In this document: positions 1-61,257 of the stretch, one piece after another | Numbering within the stretch: the first letter of the stretch is position 1 | Layout of the letters: the number at the start of each line of letters is the position of its first letter | From: Grus americana | Lineage: Eukaryota | DNA length: 64,000 nucleotides | NCBI RefSeq assembly: GCF_028858705.1 | Contig: NC_072852.1 | Location: 200,324,471 to 200,388,470 of the forward strand | Direction of reading: 5' to 3' | Notes under the pieces: generated by a model | What the model was told of the DNA's origin: nothing | Databases searched by the model: none | Seen by the model: the letters and a program-made list of their open reading frames with translations, nothing else | Made by a program: the position numbers and the translations under genes

Positions 1-2504
1 GATTCTGTCTGGTGGTACAGGGTTATGCCATTTCAAATGCAGGACTTCAGTTAGCTGCAGTTACTGTTACACCCTTGTAACTCAGGTACAAAATGAGTTA
101 GAAGTCTTTTTTTATTATCAATTGAGAAAGCTGGATAGAATAAAGTCTAATGCAAATGTAAGACTATTTGGCTGTTGAATGGCTGTACATCCAGTACATG
201 CAGACTGATACAAAAATGCAGCTTAAGTGAAGACAGGAAATTGATCATCATACTAAAGATACATACAAAGCCTTACACTCACCTGTCAACATTATTTTAC
301 TCAACAGCGTTATTTCTCTCCTCTGTATCGCTTACAAATAACAGAATACTTCCAAGCATTTTTATACTGCTGTAGCTTCTATGAGAACTAGTGATGGGTT
401 GGAACGAACTCCTATGGAAAGCGGTATCGCCATGTCATTAAAAAGCAGTTAAGGTTACCCATCTCTACTGTGGAACATCACGATTTGCACTGGAGCCTGT
501 TGTTTTAGTATAACTGTAGTGCAGTATGAAAGGCTTTCTAGATACAGATTTTCCAAACTTTTATTGCTTGTTCTCCTAAGTAGGACATGTTAGTATTTCA
601 TTTATCAGCAGGTCTGACTCCTCAGCCCAGTCCTAACACAGGAGTGCCGTCTCTCATGCTACCACTACTATCAGCTCCAGCAACATCAGGACTGTGAATG
701 AAAATAGCTTCTCTGTGCGGTGCTCTCCAGCTCCTCCGCTTCTGCAACTGTGACACAGGAACACACTGACTGGTCTGATGCTGTGCTAGACAGTGGCCGA
801 CTTGGTGTATCTGCTTGGACTTTGTATCAGACTTGGGAATCTGCAACCTGGGAACTACTAGTCTAAAGCAGACTACATAAAATGTGCTCCACTGAATGTA
901 ACACACAGCTTTTCCCAGCCATTTCAGAAGTTAGGGCTGGGTGCGAGTATCTGTCTTGCCCTGTATTTCTGAAGCACAGGAGGATGGCCCCCATTGAAGA
1001 GCCATGGAAAGGTGGCCTGATGCAATTGAAGCCCATGCTACAAAGCTATAACCAACACATGCTGGCTAAGGCACATGCATACAGTACAGCTAACTGCGCT
1101 GACCCAGCCTGGAAACCTCAAGTGCATACAGCTCAGAACCTGCTGCAGAATGGGCTGCTTGGAGGAGGGTGATAGACAGAGAGGGCATAACACACCTTCT
1201 TACCAGCACATGCCAATGACATTTTTAAAAGATAGTACTTGATGTACTCTAGTACTCTTTAGAAGCGTGTGGAATGGTATGACTCCCCTCCAGTATACAG
1301 ATTTTAGATTCCATTGCTGGGGGAGTGGGGGCAGGGGGGGAAGGGAGGGAGAAGAAAAAAAGGTGTCCTCTTGTTTTCAAGCCTAACTTATTATTTTGAC
1401 CAACACTTCATATAGGCAAAATGATAAATACTGTCTTACCTCGAGAGCATAACATTCTTAAGCCATCAAGATATTTCAGCCAAAATACAACTTAATCATG
1501 ATAGCATCACAAATATATAAAAAATTCTTTATCTGAAGGTTCTCCAACCTAAGGGTTTCAAAACCCTGATGTTCTGCACTAAACAGACAGAATTCTATAC
1601 TGTCATGTCCCTGACTGAAGCCTAAAACAAACCCCACAGATTAAACAATTTTTAGACACAATAATAATAAAAAAGCTGTGTTAATTATTTTTTGCATTTG
1701 AAATTTAGGGTATTTTAGAAGAACTTAAACCAGTCTAGACTGCTTTCAAAGATAAGATATGATATTTCAGTCTAAACAAAGCAAAGATCACTACAGCTAG
1801 TTACTTTAATTGGAACAAGCTTCTCAGTTTAAGAGATCTTCAGACATTTTATAAGCCAGTAGACACGGTCTCTCTAAACACACCTTGAAACCACCTCCAA
1901 GTTCTCCATTATATTCGATCCTGCCCATTTATGCACTCAAACACTTTACAACAAAACACTACTGCAGTTCAGCCATAACAGCAAAGAGTAGTCTGACAAT
2001 GCAGACAATAAAAAAAAACTTAATAAAGATACTCCAGATTTAGTCTCTTTAGTCAAAGCTGTAAGATACAAAAAGCTCGCTTGCAAAATTACACACAACG
2101 TATTTTAAATTACGATTATAACGGAACTGTTATTTTCGCGTGGTTCTTGCTCAAGTGTGGAAGAATCGTGCAGGGAAATCTGCCTGAGCAGCAGCCTCTG
2201 CCTCTGCAGCCTTACAGCCTGCGCGGGAAGAGCACGAGACGACCCAGCGCACTCGGGCCCACCCCGCTGCCAGCGCATGGTTAACACCCGCTCCCGACTC
2301 CCAGGCTGCCGTGCACCTCCTCGGGGAGCAGGGGCGAAACCCGACCTCAGGGCAGCCGTCGGCCCCAGTCTGGGGGCGGCCGGGCTGTCAGCCAGCCCGG
2401 CCACCACACGGCGCGGCAGCCTCCCTGAGGGACTCGCAACCACCGCGCCGCCCAGGGGTTCCGCCGCACCCCCAGGAGACCGGCTGGGGGCGCCGGGCTG
2501 ACAG

Positions 2505-2520
2505 GCGGCGGCGGCGGCGC
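2505..2520. repeat. MPHOSPH8: (GGC)5 trinucleotide repeat in MPHOSPH8 intron 1, adjacent to the exon 1 donor. It lies within a GC-rich, triplet-repeat-prone block (2500-2760) that also includes (GCC)n at about 2718-2735.
   Basis: Direct observation. The coding exon 1 (poly-Ala/Glu tracts) is also built from GCC/GAG/GGC-type triplets. Confidence 0.8.
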
Positions 2521-2531
2521 CGTGCACTCAC

Positions 2532-2765
2532 CCCCTCGGTCTTCACGTCGAGGATCTTCTCCACCTCGAAGACGTCCTCCTCCTCCTCGCTCTCACCACC
2601 GCCGCCGCCTGCCGTCGCAGCGCTCGCCGCCTTATCAGCCCCGCCACCGTCTTCCTCCACATCCTCCTCATCCTCCGCCGCAGCCGCCGTCTCCTCCTCT
2701 TCCTCCGCCCCCTCCAGCCTAGCCGCCGCCGCCGCCTCAGCCCCGCTCCCAGCCGCCGCCGCCAT
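2532..2765 (-). CDS. MPHOSPH8: MPHOSPH8 (M-phase phosphoprotein 8) coding exon 1. ATG at 2765. It encodes an Ala/Glu/Gly-rich N-terminus followed by the chromodomain start ...EEDVFEVEKILDVKTEG, then the donor gtgagt.
   Basis: Minus-strand translation MAAAAGSGAE...EEEDVFEVEKILDVKTEG matches the human MPP8 N-terminal chromodomain motif EDVFEVEKILDMKTEGGKVLYKVRWKGY. The exon ends exactly at a GTGAGT donor (intron starts at 2531). An in-frame ATG sits at 2763-2765 inside a CpG island. Confidence 0.8.
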
Positions 2766-3300
2766 TTTGGGCTGAATTTCAAACGACAACGGCGAAAAGC
2801 GGCTGCGACATCCACCGCCGGGCGAGGAGGGAGCGAGGCGGCGGCCGCAGCCAATCGGCGCCCCGCCAACCCATGACGCACAGGGGCGGGGCCCCGAGCC
2901 CGGAGGCCTTCGTGCCCTCAGCGCGGCGGTGAGCGGCAGCCAATGGGTGCGGGCAGCACCGGGAGGCCTCGACAGGGTCCGGAGGGGCTCGGCTTCGTGC
3001 CGGGCCGCGCTGTGAAGGCGGCAGCTCCGCTCGCCCTGGGGCGGGCTGCCCTCCAGCCCTATGCCCGCCACAGAGCCGGCAGCGAGGAGTCCGGTGCCGT
3101 CACGCTCCGGCCGCCCGCCGGTGTTGACCGTCGCGACCCCCGGTCTTGGCGAGGGGCGAGCGCCGGGTGAGCCCCGGAGCTGCCTGTCTGCCCGCTGGCC
3201 CGGGGATCTCTTCCTCGAAATCGAATTTTCCTGGGGAAATGCACCAGAAGGTTGTACCCGGAAACCTCAGGAGACGTCCTGCTGGGGAACAGGGGTTCTC
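2766..3300 (-). promoter_or_regulatory. MPHOSPH8: MPHOSPH8 CpG-island promoter and 5'UTR region. The island spans about 2090-3300. CCAAT boxes lie near 2848-2858 and 2937-2946, and a GC box GGGGCGGGGCC near 2884-2894.
   Basis: Very high GC and CpG density relative to the flanks. The CCAAT (gcagccaatcggcg; cagccaatgggtg) and Sp1-like GC-box motifs lie immediately upstream (minus-strand sense) of the start codon. Confidence 0.6.
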
Positions 3301-7567: not shown

Positions 7568-7670
7568 CAAGTGACTGAATGCCTTTTCTAATAAGGAAAT
7601 TGTTAATTAAATCATCAGCATCAAATTTCAAGATTTTTCCCAACTGTGGACTGAGATTCCAAGAACCATC
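7568..7670 (-). CDS. PARP4: PARP4 C-terminal exon: DGSWNLSPQLGKILKFDADDLINNFLIRKGIQSL(G).
   Basis: Acceptor ttccatag and donor gtaaat. Matches human DGFWKLTPELGLILNLNTNGLHSFLKQKGIQSLGV. Confidence 0.7.
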
Positions 7671-9479
7671 CTATGGAATAAACAAAGATATGGATAAGCC
7701 AAAGATTCAGGACACAAAACGTATTTGGCAAGAAAAAAAAAACAAAACATAGAATTACTTTAATTTTTTAAAAAAGCTTATACAAACACCTGAAATCCAC
7801 ATAATGAATTTAGGTGATTCAAATATTAAACTTCAAAAACCTTTGATATACATCAAACGTCCATAATTGACCTGGGATGTTGTAGTTAGCCTACCTTGTA
7901 AAAAACCCTTAAACATTAACAACAAAGTAATTTCGAAATCACTCCCATATAAAGTATGCACAATGACAACACTAGCCTTTTCAAATTTATTTCAAACAAA
8001 TTCCTTCTGAAAATTGTTTTTAAAGGTGCTAAAAAAATAAGCATTCCTTTTACTCAAAAGAAACAATAAAGGATCCCTGTCCTCTGCTGAGAATGAAGTC
8101 TCTATAAAATTAAGTTTACTCTATACATTATTAAATGCACTATTAACAAAACCAATCCTATTTTATCTGACTTTTCCTGCCAAAAATTAGACAACTCTCA
8201 TAATTAAAATTATCTGCCAAATGGTTTGCTAACCTCAGGTTAGATGGAAGAGAAGCTTTCAACAGGATGTTCACGTACTTACTCTTCAATATTTAATACT
8301 TTTGAAACTTTACTTGTCCTTGCAGCTTTATGTCTTAGAAAACTATAACCGTAGATACAAATTTATAACCATTTAAGGTAATTTAGAAGATAATACATGA
8401 TTTAAAAGGGATGTTTAGATAGTAATTATCCAAATTATGTAAAAAGTGAAAATCTATAGAATATTTAGTTTAATTAGTGTAAAAAACCATGAGAAATTTT
8501 CTTTTTAAAATTCAGCAATTGGAAGTTCCGCTGAAAAAGAACTCTTGGGCTGCAGTTCAGGAGTTAATTCCCACAAGAGTCAATCACAAGTCCACTACTC
8601 TAATTCCCATGGTATCCATGTGGCATGTGGTAATGGTTCAATGTTTAGAAATAATTTGATAAAAGTGTCCTGTCAGAAATATAGGAAAAATATGTATCTC
8701 TTCTTAATGCTGAGGTTGGCTATACAACTTTCACATACAACCTTCATACATAAAATAAAATTAATTACACACAGAAAGAAGCAGTGCTTTCAACAAATAG
8801 CAAGAAAGTGTGATGAGGATGCAAATACTAGGTGGACTCTGCTGCACAAAGGAACATGAAGCTGGGGCACCTGGAAGACTTACTGAATCTAGTGTACAGG
8901 ATGTACTCCTAGCAAAAGGGAATTCAACGTACCCTCAATGGGCCAATCTCTGCCAAAAAATGACAGGAGTCTCCACTGAGGGCATCCCACGGTGGCTTCT
9001 TCGCTTGGATCATGTAAAACTCTTGAAAATGTCCTTCTGTTTATTGCTTAGAGATATTGACTGTGCAAGCCACTACCTGATTGTTGATCATGACCTCACC
9101 CCTTAAGTTGGCAGGGTCACCAAACTGGCAATAGGTTATGCAGGACAGGGACTTCTCCTACCATGAGGGACATAGCAAACGCAACAAAACTAAACATTAC
9201 CTGCTCTGACTCCTACCTGCAAGATTCTTGGCTAGTACAATTTCCTTCAGTTTCCCTAGCAATTGGTCTGAGTGTCCAGGGGAAGTTCCTGCTGCAACAT
9301 CTCTCAGTCCAATCCTCTAAAACCCAAATAGTTTTCATTTTCTTGCATAATGGGCATTATTTGCATCCACTTCTTCCACTTACCTTCCACTCTACGTTTT
9401 ATATTTGTCCCAGGAAGCCCCCAAGCTGCAAACTGATGGAGGCTGTAAAAAGGTGCTGGAGGTGTATTACTTACTACCT

Positions 9480-11810
9480 GTCAGCCCTCATTTTATACTG
9501 TTCCTTACATACCCATTGCTGAGTTGCCCGTGAAAGCAATAAAACATAGCATGACTAATGTCAGCACGTACTTGTAAAATCTGTTTATAAACATTTTATA
9601 AATGTATTTTACTTTATCTCAGGACAGGATTAAAGTAAAAATATTTTTTCCTTCTACCTATATTTTAAGTAATGCACAAACAGACTATGGGTACTGTACC
9701 TGATTTTGGAGTGCAAAAATTTCTTTCCAGTCTACAGAAGACAACGAAATTCTCTGTTGAATCCTTTCTTTTTCTGTTGTCATAAAACATCTTGATTGTT
9801 CCTGGAGAGAATAATGTTCACTAAGAATCTTATGACCATTACCCATGCAGCTACTACATCATGATACAAAATAATTACATTTAAAAGCTTAAAAAACACT
9901 CCTCTTTTTAAACAGAAACCTCTTTTTCTGGTTGAAAAAGTTTCATTCTCTCTCATTTAGGAAAGGATTTGCACAAACATCAGCTACAGCTGGACAAAGT
10001 TCCTGTTTACAAAATTACATGGAGTGAAATAATTCAGAGTTAGTGAGACTTTTTTTCTCTTTTTAATCAAAACTGTATGTCTTCTTGTATTATGCACATT
10101 ATCATTATACTGTCATTTGTATGTTCAAAATAAAACATTATTGTTTAAAAGAAAAATTTCTTAGCCTGTACCTTGAACCGGGCAAATCCAGAGTAAAATT
10201 TGACTCTGGAAACGTTATCACCACTTGTTGGCTCTGATTTTTATACTGTTTCTTAAGCATGATGGATTGCCCATGAAAGGAACAAAAAATAGCATGACTT
10301 TGATGTCACCATGCTCTTTATAAAATCAGTTTATAAAGCAAAGAAAGCAAAATCATTTACAAAATGTTTATCTCAGGGCAAGGCTGAAGATAATTTTTCC
10401 TTCTACTCATATCTTACTTTTAGGTATTGCATGAATAGAGGATGGGTACTGCACCTGATTTTGGAGCTCAGGAATTTCATTCCTATTTACCGAACTGAAT
10501 GGGTGTCTTTCCTGAATCCTCTGTGTTGACATAAAACACAAAGATTGTTCCTGAACAGAGCAGTGTTCATTAAGAATCTTATTGTACCACCCATATAGCT
10601 ACTACTTCATGATACAAAGTAATGCCATTGTAAAGTCGCCTTAAAGTAGTAAGGAACAAGTGACAGAATTCAGAGTATAAGATTTATCACTTTGAAAAAG
10701 CATAACTAAAACCCAAACAATCAAAAGGAATGCTTTCTGCATTTCAGGTTCAGATTTCTTGAGTTGGAGAGCAGCCTTATTACCAGCCTTGCCATGTTCT
10801 TCTTTGGCTGTGCATCCATGAACCTTTAAACGCAAATGTTAAAGGCAGCTTTCATTAGCTGAATGCAGCTTGGATTTCAACATGACATATAGCATCCTAT
10901 ATATAAAAGACTACTGATGGAAGACTTACCACAGCCTTAAACTCCTTACTAAATCCCTCTTCAGGAGCCATAACATCACACTGACGTGCTATCTTTGCGT
11001 TACACCTTAACTGTTGCAATGCAACACGAGGTTTCGGAGTAACTTGTTTTTCAACATTATTCTTTTCAGAATTTGTGCATGTGGCAGGTGAACTAAGCAA
11101 TACTAAACCCTGCATTGCAGCAACAGAAGAAGAATCAACATGTTTCCTGTCTCCTACCGGTATTTGAAAAAGACAGGCAGGAGGAGGGATAGGAGGAGGA
11201 GCATGTTCAGGAATGTCCACACAAACATCTGATTTTTCAAGTGCAGGTGTCTGAAGTGATTTTTGTTGAGTCAGATCAATTCCTCCTACTGGCTTAAAAG
11301 GTTTAAAACCAAATGACGAGAAAGGTTCAGCAACATTTGGCAGATGAAAGTCATATAGTGAAGGTGACTGTGTTCCAGATGGTCTCTTCATTGGGATACT
11401 ACTATGAAAACAGAAATTTGATTTGAGATTGCAGACATTACGTTTAAGTTCAGAAGCATTCGCAAAGCCCTTTGCCATGTTTTTTGGTGAGATGCTCTTT
11501 TGAGTAATAGGAACTTCTTTGGATTGAAATTGGAAGCTTTCAGGTTCAACTTCCTCACTTAGGACATCCGCTGAACAAAAATCAGCTACTGATGGGGAAG
11601 ATCCCTGTTTAGGAAACAAAATAATTCCAGAATTAGTAAGATACTTTTCTCTTTTTAATCAAAATGGTATTTCTTCTTATATTGTATGCAGTATCATTAT
11701 ACTGTCATTCGTACGTTCAAAATGAAAGTAATGTATCAGTTAAGTTAAAATTTTCTTACCCTGTTCTACCTTACACTGAGCAAATTCAAAGGAAAATGTG
11801 ACTGTGACAA
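9480..11810 (-). repeat. PARP4: Local tandem duplication inside PARP4. Unit B (about 10240-11810) contains the large proline-rich exon. Unit A (about 9480-10230, immediately downstream in PARP4 sense) is a diverged copy that has lost about 900 bp including most of the exon. It keeps the acceptor and about 57 bp of exon-homologous sequence (at about 9945-10010).
   Basis: Direct alignment by eye. 9495-9885 matches 10240-10635; 10030-10220 matches 11625-11810. In A, 9940-10050 (catttaggaaaggatttgcacaaacatcagctacagctgg...) is homologous to the 5' end of the exon in B (cacttaggacatccgctgaacaaaaatcagctactgatgg...). Confidence 0.75.
10930..11604 (-). CDS. PARP4: PARP4 large exon (675 nt, 225 codons): GSSPSVADFCSADVLSEEVEPESF...EHAPPPIPPPACLFQIP...EGFSKEFKAVV. 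This is the proline-rich, low-complexity central/C-terminal region.
   Basis: Open frame of 225 codons in AT-rich DNA. It is bounded by the acceptor tttcctaaacag and the donor gtaagt and is phase 0-0. Its position and composition correspond to the large proline-rich exon of human PARP4. Confidence 0.75.
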
Positions 11811-11978
11811 AATATGACCAGAGAGGTATTTGACACTATTAAACCAAAAATTATTAACATAATGATGATTATGAGCCAAGAAAGTTCCACAGTACAATAC
11901 TGTTGTAGAAACACAGAAGATAGATCTACACAAAGTGAAGCATGGATCCTGCTTGTGCTGCAGTTCTGGCACACGTAC

Positions 11979-12078
11979 CAGCTGAGGTCCAGTAGCTGCT
12001 GCATGCAAGCTAGTGAGCCTGGGCTATACTGCCACCCTCCACCAATGTAGATGTTTGGTATTCTTCCGTCTAGGAATT
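11979..12078 (-). CDS. PARP4: PARP4 exon: ...EFLDGRIPNIYIGGGWQYSPGSLACMQQLLDLS(W). The 5' boundary is uncertain (12078 or 12069).
   Basis: LLDLSW matches human ...GGVEKLLDLSWTES. The donor gtacgt follows AGC TG. Both candidate acceptors are phase 1, which implies an undetected exon between 12078 and 12968. Confidence 0.5.
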
Positions 12079-12967
12079 CTTGGGCCAAAGGATCAAGAAA
12101 ATGGCTTTATATGAGTTGATCTAAGTTGTAGAACACACAGTCAGATCCCATTCTAAATATCTCAGTCTTAATACATTACGGACTACAGGCTGAGATGATG
12201 CTCCTGAGTTGTAGTAAATGCACATCATGGTGATGCGCAATATAATTTAATAGACAAATAATGATTTTCTTGAGTGCCCACACAATTTGGAGATGTAAAG
12301 CTTTAATCTGTTAAGACTTTATGGACTGACAGAATTACACCTGCTGGCTAACTGATGCAGGCATCTTGTCGTTTCCAGTCGAGAGCGCCACCATAACTAG
12401 CAAACATCCTATGTCACTAGTTCAAGTTTCTCTCATTGATCGTCCTCATCCCAGAGACTGTCCCACTGCATGCTAGCAATATGTCCTCTTCTTCCAGTCA
12501 TGCTTATCCCCATTCCCAGTAGTCTCTCTGCTTTGGCTGTACTTCTCTGCTAGTGGAGACTTAGTTATGGATCAATACCTTGTTTTTCCTTGAAACTCCC
12601 TGCCTCTCCCCCCAGTTTCTTAGAGCTAAATTTAAGGCTTCATTTACACTAGCATATTCTTGTAAGAGAATGCTCTAACAGGTGTTAGTTCTGGAAGGGA
12701 GAAGTCTGTACTATTATATTGTCTCTCAGAACTTCTGCTACATACGATATTTTTAAGTGTACTTTACTCTGGGACAAGTTCCTCCAAACCTTCATGTTTA
12801 TAGTAAAATTCCACACAGTAGTTGTGTGGCATTATTTTCAAAATAACTAAAAAAACCCCACCAGATTTAATGAACAATTACTATATGGTTACACATACAA
12901 TATGGCACTACTTTTGGATAATATACCAAAAATGTTAGCAATAAAAACATATATTAAATGTAATTAC

Positions 12968-13114
12968 CAGGGCACCAAAGGCAATTCCTTCTGAAAATAA
13001 GCCAGATTCCATTGACTTTTGGTCCCAGTCCATGTAAGGTAAAAAATCTACATCTTCTTGAGCTATAATTTTCAGGATGTTTGGAGCATCAGCAGAACAA
13101 TTTTCATTAGCATC
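12968..13114 (-). CDS. PARP4: PARP4 exon: DANENCSADAPNILKIIAQEDVDFLPYMDWDQKSMESGLFSEGIAFGAL.
   Basis: Acceptor ttaatttag and donor gtaatt. Matches human DENESPFPDIPKVSELIAKEDVDFLPYMSWQGEPQEAVRNQSLLAS. Confidence 0.8.
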
Positions 13115-27963: not shown

Positions 27964-30425
27964 GATCATAGAATCATAGAATGGTTTGGGTTGGAAGGGA
28001 CCTTAAAGATCATCTAGTTCCAACCCCCCTGCCATGGGCAGGGACAACCTCCACTAGACCACATTGCCCAAAGCCTCATCCAGCCTGGTCTTAAACACTT
28101 CCAGGGATGGGGCCTCCACAACCTCTCTGGGCAACCCGTTCCAGTGCCTCACCACTCTAACAGTCAAGAATTTCTTCCTAATATCTAATCTAAATTGACC
28201 CTCCATCAGCTTAAACCCATTCCCCCTTGTCCTGTCACTACACTCCCTCATAAACAGTCCCTCACCATCTTTCCTGTAGGCCCCTTCAGGTACTGCTAAG
28301 CCGCAATTACATCTCCCCAGAGCCACCTTTTCTCCAGGCTGAACAATCCCAACTCTCTCAGCCTGTCCTCATAGGAGAGGCGCTCCAGCCCTCTGATCAG
28401 CTTCGTGGACCTCCTCTGGACTCTCTCCAACAGCTCCATGTCTCTCCTGTACTGGGGCCCCCAGAGCTGGACGCAGTACTCCAGGTGGGGTCTCACGAGA
28501 GCAGAGTAGAGGGGCAGGATCACCTCCCTCGACCTGCTGGTCACACCTCTTTTGATGCAGCCCAGGACACGGTTGGCTTTCTGGACTGCAAGCGCACACT
28601 GCAGGCTCATGTTGAGCTTCTCGTCCACCAACATCCCCCAAGTCCTTCTCCTCAGGGCTGCTTTCAATCCATTCCTCGCCCAGCCTATAGCTGTGCTTGG
28701 GATTGCGCCAACCCATGTGCAGGACCTTGCACTTGGCCTTGTTGAACTTCATGTGGTTTGCACGGGCCCACCTCTCCAGCCTGTCAAGGTCCCTCTGGGT
28801 GGCATCCCTTCCCTCCAGCATGTCGATCACACGACACAGCTTGGTGTCGTCGGCAAACTTGCTGAGGGTGCACTCGATCCCACTGTCCATGTTGCCAACA
28901 AAGATGTTGAACAGTGCCGGTCCCAGTACTGACCCCTGAGGAACGCCACTCATCACTGTTCTCCACTTGGACATTGAGCTGTTGACCACAACTCTTTGAG
29001 TGCGACCATCCAGCCAATTCCTTATCCACCAAGTGGTCTATCCATCGAATCCATGTCTCTCCAGTTTAGAGACAAGGATGTCGTGCGGGACAGTGTCAAA
29101 TGCCTTGCACAAGTCCAGGTAGATGACGTCAGCTGCCCATCCCTTATCCACCAACGCTGTAACCCCATCATAGAAGGCCACCAAATTTGTCAGGCACGAT
29201 TTGCCCTTAGTGAAGCTGTGTTGGCTGTCACCAATCACCTCCTTATCTTCCATGTGCCTGAGCATAGTCTCCAGGAGGGTCTGCTCCATAATCTTGCCAG
29301 GCATGGAGGTGAGACTGACCGGCCTGTAGTTCCCTGGGTCTTCCTTTTTACCCTTCTTAAAAATGGGGGTTATGTTCCCCCTCTTCCAGTCAGCGGGAAC
29401 TTCACCAGGCTGCCAGGACTTCTCAAATATGATGGAGAGCGGCCTGGCCACTTCATCCGCCAGTTCACTCAAGACCCGCGGATGCAACTCATCAGGTCCC
29501 ATGGACTTGTGCACCTTCAGGTTCCTTAGATATTCTCGAACCTGATCTTTTCCTACAGTGGGCGGTTCTGCATTCTCCCAGTCCCTGCCTTCTGTGACCT
29601 GGGCAGTGTGGCTCAAGCATTTGCCAGTGAAGACTGAGGCAACGAAGTCATTGAGTACCTCAGCCTTCTCCATATCCTGGGTAACCAGGTCACCCATTTT
29701 ATTCCGGAGGGGACCCACATTTTCCCTCATCCTCCTCTTATCACTAACATACCTATAGAAGCTTTTCTTGTTGTCCTTGACATCCCTGGCCAAACTAATT
29801 TCTGTCAGGGCTTTGGCTTTCCTAACCTGCTCCCTGGCTGCTCAGTTTCTCTGTATTCTTCCCAGGCTACCTGCCCTTGCTTCCACCCTCTGTAGGCTTC
29901 CTTTTTGTGTTGGAGTTTGCCCAGGAGCTCCTTGTTCATCCATGGGGGCCTCTTGGTGTTTTTGCTTGACTTCCTCTTTGCTGGGATGCCTTGCTCCTGA
30001 GCTTGGAGGAAGTGATCCTTGAATATTAGCCAGCTGTCTTGGGCTCCTCTTCCTTCTAGGGCTTTGTCCCATGGTATTCTACCAAGCAGATCCCTGAAGA
30101 GGCCAAAGTCTGCTCTCCTGAAGTCCAGGGTAGTGAGCTTGCTGTGCACCCTCCTCGCTGCCCTGAGGATCCTGAATTCCACCATTTCGTGGTCACTGCA
30201 GCCAAGGCTGCCCTTGAGCTTGACGTCCCCTACCAGGCCCTCCTTATTGGTGAGAATAAGGTCCAGCATGGCACCTCTCCTTGTGGGCTCCTCTGTCACT
30301 TGGAGGAGAAAGTTGCCATTGACACATTCCAGGAAATTCCTGGATTGCTTGTGCATGGCTGCGTTGTCCCTCCAGCAGATGTCGGGGTGGTTGAAGTCCC
30401 CCATAAGGACCAGGGCTTGTCATGG
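27964..30425 (-). mobile_element. CR1 (chicken repeat 1) LINE, 5'-truncated (about 2.46 kb) and degraded. It retains the end of the endonuclease domain ([10 protein letters not shown]), the reverse-transcriptase domain split over three frames, and the characteristic 3' tail ...cattctatgattctatgatc. It is sense-oriented relative to PARP4, inside a PARP4 intron.
   Basis: Minus-strand ORFs 29805-30404, 29038-29793 and 28369-28989 translate to CR1 ORF2 ([20 protein letters not shown]; [45 protein letters not shown]). The frameshifts between them indicate decay. The 3' octamer repeats ATTCTRTG are typical of avian CR1. Confidence 0.9.
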
Positions 30426-44890: not shown

Positions 44891-45356
44891 CTGTAAATAG
44901 AAAGAGCAAAGTTAGTCAAAGAAACTATATAGAGACTTAAAGAATCAATTTTATCAGATAGTGCTCTAACAGCTGACAATCCATACTTAACCTCTGGGTT
45001 GTGATTTAACAGCCTCCCAACAAGGCAGTGCTTTAATGAGGGTTCATGGGACACAAAGACCAAGCACACAGCTTCAAATACAAACCCCATAGTGACAAGA
45101 TAGGTTCATCTAAATGTATGCTGGAGTAACTTGTTCTGTCAGTTGAACTACTCAAAATTCACCCCGATACAGCTCCTTTGACTTGAATCTAATGTTGTTA
45201 CAATGACACAGACTGCAAGCGCTATACCAGAGTGCACACATAACTCGTATGCTGAGAAATGCATTTAAGCCGCTCTCAAGTCAAGCTTTGCTGGCTCTCA
45301 ATACGATGGCCAGAATATCACTTGCTATAGCATTTCAGCATTTCAACATGTCATCA

Positions 45357-46580
45357 TGGTGGGTGGCCTCCTATGATGGGGTTACAGCATCGGTGGATAA
45401 GGGAAGGGCAACTGACGTCATCTACCTGGACTTGTGCAAGGCATTTGACACTGTCTCGCATGACATCCTTGTCTCTAAATTGGAGAGACATGGATTTGAT
45501 GGATGGACCACTCAGTGGATAAGGAATTGGCTGGATGGTCGCACTCAAAGAGTTGTGGTCAACAGCTCAATGTCCAAGTGGAGAACAGTGATGAGTGGAA
45601 TTCCTCAGGGGTCAGTACTGGGACCGGCACTGTTCAACATCTTTGTCGGCGACATGGACAGTGGGATTGAGTGCACCCTCAGCATGTTTGCCCATGACAC
45701 CAAGCTGCGTGGTGTGGTCGACACTCTGGAGGGAAGGGATGCCATCCAGAGGGACCTGGACAGGCTGGAGAGGTGGGCCCGTGCAAACCACATGAAGTTC
45801 AACAAGGCCAAGTGCAAGGTCCTGCATGTGGGTCGGCGCAATCCCAAGCACAACTACAGGCTGGGCAGGGAATGGATTGAGAGCAGCCCTGAGGAGAAGG
45901 ACTTGGGGGTATTGATTGATGAGAAGCTCAACATGACCCGGCAGTGTGCGCTTGCAGTCCAGAAAGCCAACCGTGTCCTGGGCTGCATCAAAAGAGGCGT
46001 GACCAGCAGGTCGACGGAGGTGATCCTGCCCCTCTACTCTGCTCTCGTGAGACCCCACCTGGGGTACTGCGTCCAGCTCTGGGGGCCCCAGTACAGGAGA
46101 GACATGGAGCCGTTGGAGCGAGTCCAGAGGAGGACCACGAAGCTGATCAGAGGGCTGGAGCACCTCTCCTATGAGGACAGGCTGAGAGAGTTGGGATTGT
46201 TCAGCCTGGAGAAAAGAAGGCTCCAGGGAGATCTAATTGCAGCTTACCAGTACCTGAAGGGGGCCTACAGGAAAGATGGTGAGGGACTGTTTATGAGGGA
46301 GTGTAGTGACAGGACCAGGGGTAATGGGTTTAAGCTGAAGGAGGGTCGATTTAGATTAGATATTAGGAAGAAATTCTTTACTGTTAGAGTGGTGAGGCAC
46401 TGGAACAGGTTGCCCAGCGAGGTTGTGGAGGCCCCATCCCTGGAAGTGTTTAAGACCAGGCTGGATGAGGCTTTGGGCAATGTGGTCTAGTGGAGGGTGT
46501 CCCTGCCCATGGCAGGGGGGTTGGAACTAGATGATCTTTAAGGTCCCTTCCAACCCAAACCATTCTATGATTCTATGATC
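45357..46580 (+). mobile_element. CR1 LINE, 5'-truncated (about 1.2 kb), carrying an uninterrupted RT C-terminal ORF (about 377 codons, 45357-46487, ending at the native stop) followed by the CR1 3'UTR and (ATTCTRTG)2 tail. It is antisense to PARP4, in an intron.
   Basis: Plus ORF 45249-46490: ...[44 protein letters not shown]...[45 protein letters not shown]...[27 protein letters not shown]. It is about 88% amino-acid identical to the other CR1 copy. The 3' end is cattctatgattctatgatc. Confidence 0.9.
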
Positions 46581-57700: not shown

Positions 57701-59447
57701 TGAGGTACAACTGGAGAGCCTGGGCGTTGTGAGCAGGAAGGGCTACAACACACTCATACCTCTCTGTAAAATACCCAAAGGGACAGCAACCCAGTCAAAT
57801 AAATGAACCAAGCAAAGTGCAGTCTACTGCCCAATAAGGAGCAGTAACCCTTGCTGCACTTGGAAGGAGGAGGAAATTGTCACTGTTAAAGCACAAGTGA
57901 ACTTTGGAATACCTGACAGAGAGCAGGAAATTGAGTTAAAACCTGTTCAAAGTCCGTCCCCAGCAATTCTTCTCTCCCTTGAGTGAAGAAGATTCTATTC
58001 TCTTTCATTGTTGAGGAATGCTACCACTGAATAGTAGCCTCTCCTCCCCTATTTTCCTAGAGAACCAAGGAATTTTAGCAGTGTTTGGCTTTACTCTTTT
58101 TGAATGGCAGAATTTCCAAAATTCAAAATCAGAATAGAAAACTATTGTATTTAGTCTGTGTATTGAGAATTAATTAGCTGCTGATAAATACTTTTATAAC
58201 TGGAATACTTTGTTGTTGCAGCACCAGACATGGAAGTTATGCAAAGCGGAACTGCTGACAACTATCACTGGTTTAATTCTTACAATTTTAATTTATGTTG
58301 GTGAAGATCCATAAGGCCCCAGTAGCCTCAAAGGATTTCACACAAGCTTGTGTTCATGATCAAACCACAAATTCAACACCATTGTTAGCAATGACATATT
58401 TTTAGTGAAGAGAGGGAGCCAAAAATATTTTTTTATTGTTCAACAATAGACCACAAATAATCTGTAGCCCTGTAAGGCCTTCAGTGTGCAGGTAAACTGA
58501 AAACAAACCTCTACAGTATGTTCCTACTAAAAACGTCAAAAAGACAGAATGTGATGCTGTGCTTTAAAAAAAGCACAAGTACAAATCCTTTTATTTTCTA
58601 GCACAGTAGCTTATCAGCGTTAATACAGAATCCAGTCTGAGGACAATTATGTAGCCAACATATACGTAGACAATGTATTCATAACTGGCAAAACCAAAGC
58701 GCGGGCAAGATGATGGAAAGTTTAGCAGAAAGAGCCCTGTGAACTACAGATAACAGCAGAAATTAAAACTGGTAGTAGGCAACTGAAAGGGATGCCCTGG
58801 GTTTATACAGCCTAAAGCTCCGTTCTGTACCTGCCCACGCAGCCTGCGACGTACCACAAGTTTTTGGAGTGGGGTGCTCTGCCACTTACTGGAGTTTAGA
58901 GGAAAACACTAATTTCGCTCAGTAAGACAGAGCATGCCTAATGCACAAAACGTCAGAAAGCCAGGGGATGCTTTCTGCCCATGTATCTTCCTGTTCCTCC
59001 CTTACTGCAGCTACTTAGAAATTAAAAGGGTATAAGCAGCCGCAATACCAGCGCACTAGAAGTCCAAAGCCTCACCCCCGCAGACAACGCCACACCGCGA
59101 AAGGCTTGCGGACAGCTCGCTAGACAAGGATCTTCCCACACACCATGCCGGGACAGCCGCTGAAGAGCGCTGCGCGGGTACGGCCTTCCGCCTCTTGAGG
59201 AGAGGCGCTGCCCGAAGAGAAACTCCGTCTCCCAAAAGGGCCACCAGCGGCAACGCGGAGAGGACCCGGGAGCCGCCTCCACCTGCGGGGCGTCCTCAAG
59301 AGCGAGGGGCAGGCCCGGGTACCTGAAAGGATCCCCACCGCCTCTTCCCGCCCCGACAGCCCCGAGCAGGAACCGCGGAAGCAGCGGCTGCGGGCGCACT
59401 ACTTCACTGTTGATGCCCGTCAACGGCCTTTTCGCCACCGAGGCTCT

Positions 59448-59467
59448 TGGGAGCTGTAGTTCGAGCG
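59448..59467 (-). promoter_or_regulatory. ZNF143/Staf-binding-site-like motif (ACTACAGCTCCCAAGAGCC on the minus strand).
   Basis: It matches the extended SBS consensus ACTACAAxTCCCAGxAxxGC (ACTACA followed by TCCCA). It is in inverted orientation relative to the second site 60 bp away. Confidence 0.45.
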
Positions 59468-59510
59468 CCGAAACAACGCCTCCCAGCTGGGCGGGGAAGG
59501 CGGTGGGTTA

Positions 59511-59535
59511 GAACTACAGCTCCCAGCATGCTCGG
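59511..59535 (+). promoter_or_regulatory. ZNF143/Staf-binding-site-like motif (gAACTACAGCTCCCAGCATGCtcgg) on the plus strand.
   Basis: Near-perfect match to the extended SBS motif ACTACAxxTCCCAGCAxTGC that is common in bidirectional CpG promoters. Confidence 0.5.
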
Positions 59536-61257
59536 CGCCGGGGCGGTGCCCAGCCTGTGGCGCCGGGAGGCTGTGCGATGGCGGCAGGTTTGTAATAGAA
59601 GGCGAGGGGTGGTGGGCAGAGTGGAGTGTTGCTGCGGAAGCGGTCTGAGGAGCGGTGTAGGTGCTGCTTTCTCGGTATCTGTGAGGGCCCGTGGGTCGGA
59701 GCTGTTGCGGTGCGGGTGCCTTGGGGCCGGGGGAGCGGCGGGACGCTTCACTCCTCTGTGAGGGCGTCGTGGTGCCGCTGTCTGGGGCGATGTCCGTGTT
59801 CACGGGGGAAGGGAGGCGCCGAGCCTGGCCCCTCGGCTCGGCAGAGGAGCGTAGCTGTGCTCGTTTCCTTACCGGCGACCTTCGGGGGATCCCTTCGTCC
59901 CTCCTCGCCTTCGCGGGGCGGGTCAGCTTCAGCCCTGCAGGCTCTTTCGGTTGGCACGAAGGCGCTGCTGCCCTTAGACTCTAGGGGAAGCTTTAAACTG
60001 GCAGGCTGCCACGAAAGGGTTTCCAAAAGGTGACAATAGAAGTAGCGTCTGAACCCTGTGGGCTTGAATTTGCCTATACCTGTACCTCGCCGGGAGACTT
60101 CCAGTGGCGCCTCAAAATTGCAGGCAGTTGAAAAACATTTTTCTAGGTGAATTTCACTATTTCTCCTAGTCAAAGTTTCAAACTCCGGTTGAAAGCATAA
60201 GCCCTTTTACCGCAGGGAAAATGAAGCGAGAGCTGGCATGAACCGATGATCTCTTGGGAACAAGGAAGCCCTAAGCAGTTATTTCCTGATCAGCAGGCCT
60301 GTGGAGCCTGGGCTGCTGTGCTTGTCTGTCCTGTGTCCCCTGGCCCCTTCTTTCCTCTCTGTTCCCTGTGACACGCCACGTGCACAGGCAGGGAGTGAAC
60401 TGCCCTGGGACTAGTGTGAGGCAGCAGGGCTGAGTGGTCAGGGTCTGGCTTGCCACATCAGCAGCAGTTCTTTTTTTCCTCCTAAGTGAGGAAGTCACTT
60501 TGGGTCTCCTACCTACCTGAATTCATTCATGTTTTATGACACTTGCAAGAATTTAGTTATCGCTGAAAGTTTTGCAGTCTTCAAACTTTCTTTTTTTTGG
60601 ATGGATTAAAAAAAAAGAAGCTGGTTGGGAGGAAGAACTAACAGGCGGCATGGTTGTAGAGTTTCCATGAGAAACTAAGGAAGACATGACAATAATAAGT
60701 GCTGCACTGAAACGTGCAGTAAAATGTTTGTATTTAGATGCACATATTTGAAACTTTCTGTTAATACGAAGGTCCTATGAGGGAAGTTTGTCTTTCAATT
60801 CCTCAAATCACCTCTCTTCTTTTGTTGCAGGCACTTTAAAAAAATTCCGAATCCCTCTCTGTACTCTTGAAGAGAATATTATACACAGCTTTATAATATT
60901 TGAGATAATACTAGCTGCGTTCAAATAAATAATAAGATTAAAAGTTGGATTATGTTGACTTCCTGTACAGAAAGTGTTTGTTACTAGTTGTCCAAATTGT
61001 TTCTATTGCCTAGGGAAAAGTAGATTGTGACTGATTTTTATAAATACACTAAGTTGGTTACAAGAGAGTAACTTTCTTTTACTGGGAGTCCGTTACTGTA
61101 GATTTCTTATTTTGTTTATCTGCTTAATTTCTAGGTGCTGAAAGTAGGTAACCATCCACACCAAATACCTGGAACTTTGAAAGTGTCCTAACGCTACATA
61201 ACGTAATATTGTTATGTTAATGCTACATCAGCAAATAAATTGGATACAATACACAAG

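Follow-up and report, generated by a model that had tools for sequence, protein, structure and literature searches.

The question raised by this locus is what has become of a truncated second copy of the largest PARP4 exon, which lies just downstream of the intact exon in a 64,000-nucleotide (nt) stretch of the Grus americana genome (contig NC_072852.1, positions 200,324,471 to 200,388,470; this whole stretch is referred to below as the window, and positions are counted within it). The largest exon of human PARP4, exon 30, is disordered, variable in length and positively selected (Daugherty et al., 2014; PMC4038475). The initial annotation of the window had proposed that a segment of about 1.6 kilobases (kb) with a 675-nt PARP4 exon is directly duplicated, that the downstream copy might serve as a cryptic or poison exon, and that the duplication might contribute to length variation between species or alleles. 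We find that the duplication is real, and that the downstream copy is very probably an old, fixed and neutrally decaying pseudo-exon left by an intragenic tandem duplication plus a deletion.

Direct repeats were listed for positions 9000-12500 of the window, a sensitive self-comparison was made with BLAST (Basic Local Alignment Search Tool), and the entire 64 kb was searched with BLAST and with an nhmmer profile built from eight copies (threshold E <= 10). Nine direct-repeat families were present in 9000-12500, with two spacings of ~745 nt and ~1595 nt. Positions 9473-9887 of the downstream copy (copy A) aligned with 10220-10635 of the upstream copy (copy B) at 69.9% identity over 435 nt (E = 2e-59), and 9902-10223 of A aligned with 11495-11820 of B at 71.0% over 341 nt (E = 9e-45); the alignment of 9495-10230 with 10240-11810, which had been suggested as a check, is highly significant. 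The gene is on the minus strand, and the layout in its direction is head-to-tail, with a ~1.6 kb unit B (11820-10215) followed by the ~770-nt copy A (10223-9456); the two copies abut at about 10215-10225. A segment of B fills the gap between the two BLAST blocks, and the orthologous segment was found in all other species analysed below. This segment, estimated at about 900 bp in the initial annotation, measures 859 nt. Copy A retains ~100 of the 675 exon nucleotides, 84% of the exon being lost together with the donor. The longest word identical between A and B is 20 nt. No third copy was detected in the 64-kb window by either BLAST or the nhmmer profile, and the unit is therefore not an interspersed repeat. 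Tandem Repeats Finder reported no relevant internal tandem repeats in 9000-12500, which rules these out as the source of the repeat signal.

The minus-strand exons of the window encode a BRCT_2 domain (E = 5.5e-9) and a VWA_3 domain (E = 2e-10) in Pfam. In phmmer searches they matched full-length human PARP4 (PDB 11jf_P, 9bw6 and 9bw7) with an E value of 1.9e-102 and PARP4 BRCT structures at ~1e-15. As judged from the BRCT, vWA, post-vWA and C-terminal exons, the gene is PARP4, the vault PARP, in agreement with the original assignment. Exons at 15690-15607, ~14824-14720 and 13114-12968, directly upstream of the large exon, correspond to human PARP4 residues 1124-1217. The splice sites of the next exon downstream of the large one were read from the sequence as ccatag/GAT and TTG/gtaaat (here and below, a slash marks an exon boundary). 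Its phases, 0-0, make the large exon symmetric: the exon before it closes in phase 0, its own 675 nt are read in frame 0, and the next exon starts ...ccatag/GAT GGT. The remnant of the second copy is located in the ~3.3 kb intron between them (10929-7671). Coordinates of the two copies and of the neighbouring exons are collected in Table 1.

Table 1. The two copies of the duplicated PARP4 segment and the flanking exons, in window coordinates. PWM, position weight matrix score (approximate, good for ranking only).
Feature	Coordinates	Strand	Remarks
Copy B, 5' intronic part	11605..11820	-	Aligns with A 10223-10003; branch/polypyrimidine region, AG at 11606-11605
Real large PARP4 exon, 675 nt, 225 codons, phase 0-0	10930..11604	-	Open frame, flanked by ...taaacag/ and /gtaagt
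B-only segment, 859 nt	10636..11494	-	3' 565 nt of the exon, donor GTG/gtaagt at 10929, 294 nt of intron
Copy B, 3' intronic part	10215..10635	-	Aligns with A 9887-9456; nhmmer E = 4e-123
Copy A, 5' intronic part with relic acceptor (AG 10004-10003)	10003..10223	-	Acceptor PWM 3.5 vs 9.2 for the real exon
Pseudo-exon remnant	9902..10002	-	Homologous to the first ~110 nt of the real exon; frame ELCPAVADVCANPFLNERE, TGA at 9945-9943
Copy A junction missing 859 nt	9888..9901	-	Between homology blocks; too diverged for microhomology to be read
Copy A, 3' intronic part	9456..9887	-	nhmmer E = 2e-128
Upstream PARP4 exon (DANENCSADAPNILKIIAQEDVDFLPYMDW...), 147 nt	12968..13114	-	Matches human PARP4 1181-1217; ends in phase 0; boundaries inferred from sequence
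Next downstream PARP4 exon (DGSWNLSPQLGKILKF..., DGSWNLSPQLG...)	7568..7670	-	Matches human PARP4 1577-1616, E = 0.06, weak but collinear; phase-0 start; boundaries inferred

The large exon lies between the exons that correspond to human residues ~1217 and ~1577, and by this placement it is the positional ortholog of human PARP4 exon 30, the largest exon of the human gene. Direct sequence orthology was tried and given up in favour of the flanking exons: a profile of the exon from four species found no match in human PARP4 (PDB sequences) even at E <= 10, so that the orthology is positional only. No similarity to human exon 30 is expected, because the region has a ratio of nonsynonymous to synonymous divergence (dN/dS) above 1. 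The exon product is moderately proline-rich (10.7% proline, 12.0% serine), a milder composition than the proline-rich region first described.

The age of the duplication was addressed with contigs from other species. Three contigs (L001, L002 and L003; one species each) were retrieved by a search with the exon translation, as three open reading frame (ORF) calls on short contigs, and were aligned with the window to give a four-species comparison. All three align collinearly with window 14243-6000, through both copies and at 83-87% identity, and each has additional cross-matches of ~70% between paralogs. Neighbour-joining trees were built for the 5' intronic part, the 3' intronic part and the exon-homologous part; in all three, the A copies and the B copies of the four species form reciprocal clades. 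Kimura two-parameter distances (K80), given as means of the two intronic segments, are 0.10-0.12 between orthologs (A-A or B-B) and 0.27-0.31 between paralogs (A-B). It follows from the reciprocal clades that the duplication and the loss of 859 nt are both older than the split of these species, and that the copies have undergone no gene conversion since. The comparison with other species that had been recommended for dating the event thus finds both copies in all four.

A fifth, more distant lineage is represented by L006, a short-read contig of 1135 nt that was added by the profile search. Its intron K80 to the other four species is 0.20-0.28. The last 52 nt of the contig (1084-1135) are of the A type: GTCTCACTAACTCTGGAATT matches the A copies at 29/30 positions and is followed by an exact 15-mer from the interior of the remnant, and at the diagnostic sites of GTCTCACTAACTCTGGAATT every B copy differs, that of L006 itself included. 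The contig passes from the end of the B-only intron directly into the tail of copy A. It is without ~560 nt (the 3' part of B and most of the 5' part of A) and without another ~60 nt that include the relic acceptor; we tentatively read these gaps as either genuine lineage-specific deletions or a join made in short-read assembly. On this sequence comparison, duplication and deletion predate the split of the four species and, tentatively, that of the fifth lineage as well. The chicken-turkey split is about 30-40 million years old. When the paralog distance is calibrated on these two birds, whose published synonymous divergence (Ks) is 0.081 (PMC4038475), the duplication can roughly be placed at an age of the order of 100 million years.

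The splice-site scores given here come from approximate PWMs and serve to rank sites only. The remnant was said to keep the polypyrimidine tract, the AG and about 57 nt of exon homology. The AG is indeed there, at the position listed in Table 1, with 10002 rather than about 10010 as the first exon-homologous base; the tract is retained but weak (ctccatgtaattttgtaaacag); and the 57 nt describe correctly the part before the stop, the homology itself running for ~100 nt (10002-9902). The truncated translation with its in-frame stop was read correctly: the frame ELCPAVADVCANPFLNERE is 19 codons long and stops at a TGA that all four species share and that a +1 nt indel with respect to B has created. 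On the PWM scale the relic acceptor of the window species (3.5, against 9.2 for the real exon) ranks 31st of the 227 AGs in the same intron. The relic AG is present in the window, L001 and L003, has become AA in L002 (TAAACAA) and is deleted in L006. The original donor of copy A disappeared with the deleted segment. In the window species no donor within 300 nt of the relic acceptor reaches a score of 5.2; up to 400 nt, the best replacement is CAG/gtacag at +303, with a score of 5.2 against 9.7 for the real donor. Only L001 and L002 retain an intact, good donor GTG/gtaaga at about +170, where the window species reads GTC/ataaga. No AATAAA or ATTAAA was found within 900 nt of the relic acceptor, and use of the remnant as an alternative terminal exon is hence unsupported. 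Such different disabling lesions in different lineages are the pattern expected of neutral decay.

The two copies of the exon start differ in their rates of change. The remnant diverges by 4.0-8.9% between species and the intron by 8.7-10.7%, which is no difference by Fisher's test (P = 0.06-1.0). The real exon diverges by 19-23%, about twice the intron value (Fisher P = 1e-9 to 1e-14). The exons compared were window 10930-11604 (minus strand), L001 2851-3789, L002 3412-4158 and L003 591-1472. By the Nei-Gojobori method (NG86), dN/dS of the real exon is 1.18-2.32 and exceeds 1 in all six species pairs (dN 0.24-0.33, dS 0.12-0.21), with dN at 2-3 times the intron K80. Published values for the largest PARP4 exon are 1.75 for human-rhesus and 2.05 for chicken-turkey (PMC4038475), and the published positive selection is reproduced here in a different set of species. 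The remnant is outside the selective regime of the coding exon and shows no measurable constraint.

Nor does the old duplication account for the variable length of the exon. The exon is open in all four species, with 675 nt in the window, 693 and 687 nt in two of the others and 822 nt in L003, and these lengths differ by in-frame indels within the exon, one of them an expansion in L003. In that contig, a unit of ~15 codons (SATRSVAPMQGFVFG-like) is tandemly expanded threefold at ~1090-1230, giving the 822 nt. In-exon indels and repeat expansion, not the old duplication, account for the exon length variation. The proposed effect of the duplication on length between species or alleles is not supported: the duplicated structure is the same in the four species, and two samples of one species show no length difference across it. 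The second sample comes from a metagenome scan, which yielded only L004 (identical to L002) and L005 (99.2% identical), both of the same species as L002; in this small within-species sample, the 2808-nt duplicated region of L005 shows a single mismatch and no gap against L002. On this observation and on the 20-nt limit for shared words, copy-number polymorphism or unequal recombination still under way can be set aside; because no longer word is shared, the A/B pair cannot drive unequal homologous recombination today. A separate small change was noted just upstream of the real exon, where the window (~11605-11615, minus strand) has a 12-nt deletion relative to the other three species (…TTTGTTTC[CTTGTAATTTTA]CTAAACAG). 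The deletion is in the polypyrimidine/branch region and raises the real acceptor on the rough PWM scale, to 9.2 from 4.9-7.2 in the others.

The history that very probably explains these data begins with a ~1.6 kb segment that was copied head-to-tail; besides the whole large exon, it took in intron on both sides, ~216 nt upstream and ~700 nt downstream. Given the symmetry of the exon, we infer that the gene could at first have had both exon copies in frame. The downstream copy would then have lost 859 nt, most simply in one deletion, and the leftover acceptor-bearing stub is closed by the TGA through the 1-nt indel. Since then the stub has been ordinary intron DNA, drifting at the neutral rate and gathering lineage-specific lesions, and the upstream copy has remained the functional exon under positive selection. 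Several points weigh against this account. The order of full duplication and then deletion follows from parsimony only, and an intact second exon was found in none of the sampled lineages; the evidence from L006 amounts to the final 52 nt of a contig assembled from short reads; the absolute date comes from a crude clock and is a rough estimate; in 3/6 species pairs the remnant is slightly, though non-significantly, more conserved than the intron; and, as far as sequence can tell, the relic acceptor might still be used rarely in RNA.

The absence of an intact second copy would be natural if one complex rearrangement, for instance template switching in replication, had placed copies of two non-contiguous pieces, ~320 nt from the 5' side and ~420 nt from the 3' side, beside the original in one step, so that a complete second exon never existed. 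The two pieces are of the same age by A/B K80 (0.27 and 0.31), but equal ages are also predicted by duplication followed by deletion if the deletion came soon after. Such a rearrangement is a more complex event than a duplication plus a deletion, and intronic deletions of the size needed do occur here, as the ~560 nt and ~60 nt missing from L006 illustrate; we consider a one-step origin unlikely. A different reading concerns what the stub does rather than how it arose. Were it a functional poison or cryptic exon, use of its acceptor would bring in the TGA and lead to nonsense-mediated decay, or to a PARP4 without the vault-binding C-terminus, and so regulate PARP4 output. The window species has both the AG and the in-frame TGA, and the frame of the remnant reads as was first proposed, since the real exon ends in phase 0. 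In L001 the relic acceptor scores 5.6, similar to the real acceptor of the same species (4.9), and the good GTG/gtaaga donor follows 171 nt downstream; the marginally higher conservation of the remnant in some pairs would also fit. In the window species, however, the rank of the acceptor is low, a donor of adequate score is missing nearby, and the donor of L001 and L002 is mutated. L002 no longer has the AG, in L006 the acceptor is deleted, the conservation is statistically indistinguishable from that of the intron, and the lack of a poly(A) signal leaves use as a terminal exon equally unsupported. A poison exon therefore appears improbable, and the suggestion made for this stub in the initial annotation is not borne out.

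Hardly any weight can be given to an origin of the copies from an inserted interspersed repeat or transposable element, or from a repeat falsely expanded in assembly. The intron is AT-rich and LINE (long interspersed nuclear element) insertions are present elsewhere in the gene, which would suit a mobile element. The duplicated unit, however, includes the start of a bona fide coding exon, the copies are adjacent and collinear, and these two are the only ones in the whole window by BLAST and nhmmer, profile search included. An assembly artefact, which had been named as the finding that would undo the duplication, is contradicted by the 30% divergence of the copies and by the recurrence of the structure in six independent contigs from five species. 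A neutrally decaying relic of a duplicated and then truncated exon thus stays the very probable explanation.

Other features of the window concern the gene as a whole and its neighbour. A GC-rich block (0.52) at 58000-60500, just upstream of the BRCT-encoding exons in the sense of the transcript, is probably the CpG island of the PARP4 promoter, and nearly the whole gene appears to lie within the window. At ~2400-3100 (minus strand), a GC-rich (0.56), CpG-island-like segment encodes an acidic N-terminus ending in DVFEVEKILDVKTEG, which weakly matches the start of the chromodomain of M-phase phosphoprotein 8 (MPHOSPH8; E = 0.004); this is probably the first exon of the neighbouring gene just downstream of the PARP4 3' end. 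Two LINE-type retrotransposon fragments are found in PARP4 introns, at 28300-30400 (minus strand) and 45249-46490 (plus strand), with RVT_1 reverse transcriptase matches (E = 6e-22, 8e-13 and 4e-13) and an endonuclease match. The first coincides with a GC-rich block (GC 0.53), and the second has an intact ORF of 413 amino acids.

Recurrent positive selection on a single exon has a textbook example in the largest exon of PARP4, which is thought to face pathogens. The relic adds that whole-exon duplication, besides point substitution and small indels, once affected it in the bird lineage. The real exon has since changed fast, while the stub has kept to the slow pace of the intron; for this reason the stub preserves approximately the ancestral first ~35 codons (…C-P-A-V-A-D-V-C…) and could serve as an outgroup for polarising changes in the exon. 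It is otherwise a neutral fossil, which does not explain present length variation and gives no sign of regulating PARP4. One may speculate further that PARP4 of the avian lineage once had two in-frame tandem exon copies, an arms-race expansion that later collapsed by deletion, and that some living sauropsid might express both copies to this day or employ the stub as a poison exon; we regard this as a long shot. Judged by its relic AG and the GTG/gtaaga donor 171 nt apart, the species of L001 is the candidate in which the stub could be a lineage-specific poison exon.

The large exon resembles human PARP4 exon 30 (PMC4038475) in its position in the gene, in being the largest exon, in its variable length and in its dN/dS (1.2-2.3 here; published, 1.75 and 2.05), and differs in that the avian exon has no detectable sequence similarity to it. 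The study of Daugherty et al. (2014; PMC4038475) dealt with substitutions and length variability of the exon and reported no exon duplication. We found no report of exon duplication in PARP4 in the literature searched, the coverage of which was incomplete. In poison exons both splice sites are functional, and conservation usually far exceeds that of the flanks. Like them, the PARP4 remnant is an intronic segment that has an AG and a premature stop in frame, but it has no donor in the window species, its acceptor is lost in two lineages and its conservation equals the intron background. Tandem exon duplication is a general phenomenon behind many mutually exclusive exons. The PARP4 locus has the hallmarks of such duplications, namely a head-to-tail exon with flanking intron, a symmetric phase, diverged copies and one copy kept functional; unlike the members of a mutually exclusive pair, its second copy, with ~100 of 675 nt, has lost 84% of the exon and the donor, carries a stop and is a dead relic. 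Tandem exon duplications and pseudo-exon relics are a well-known class, of which the PARP4 relic is a previously undescribed instance.

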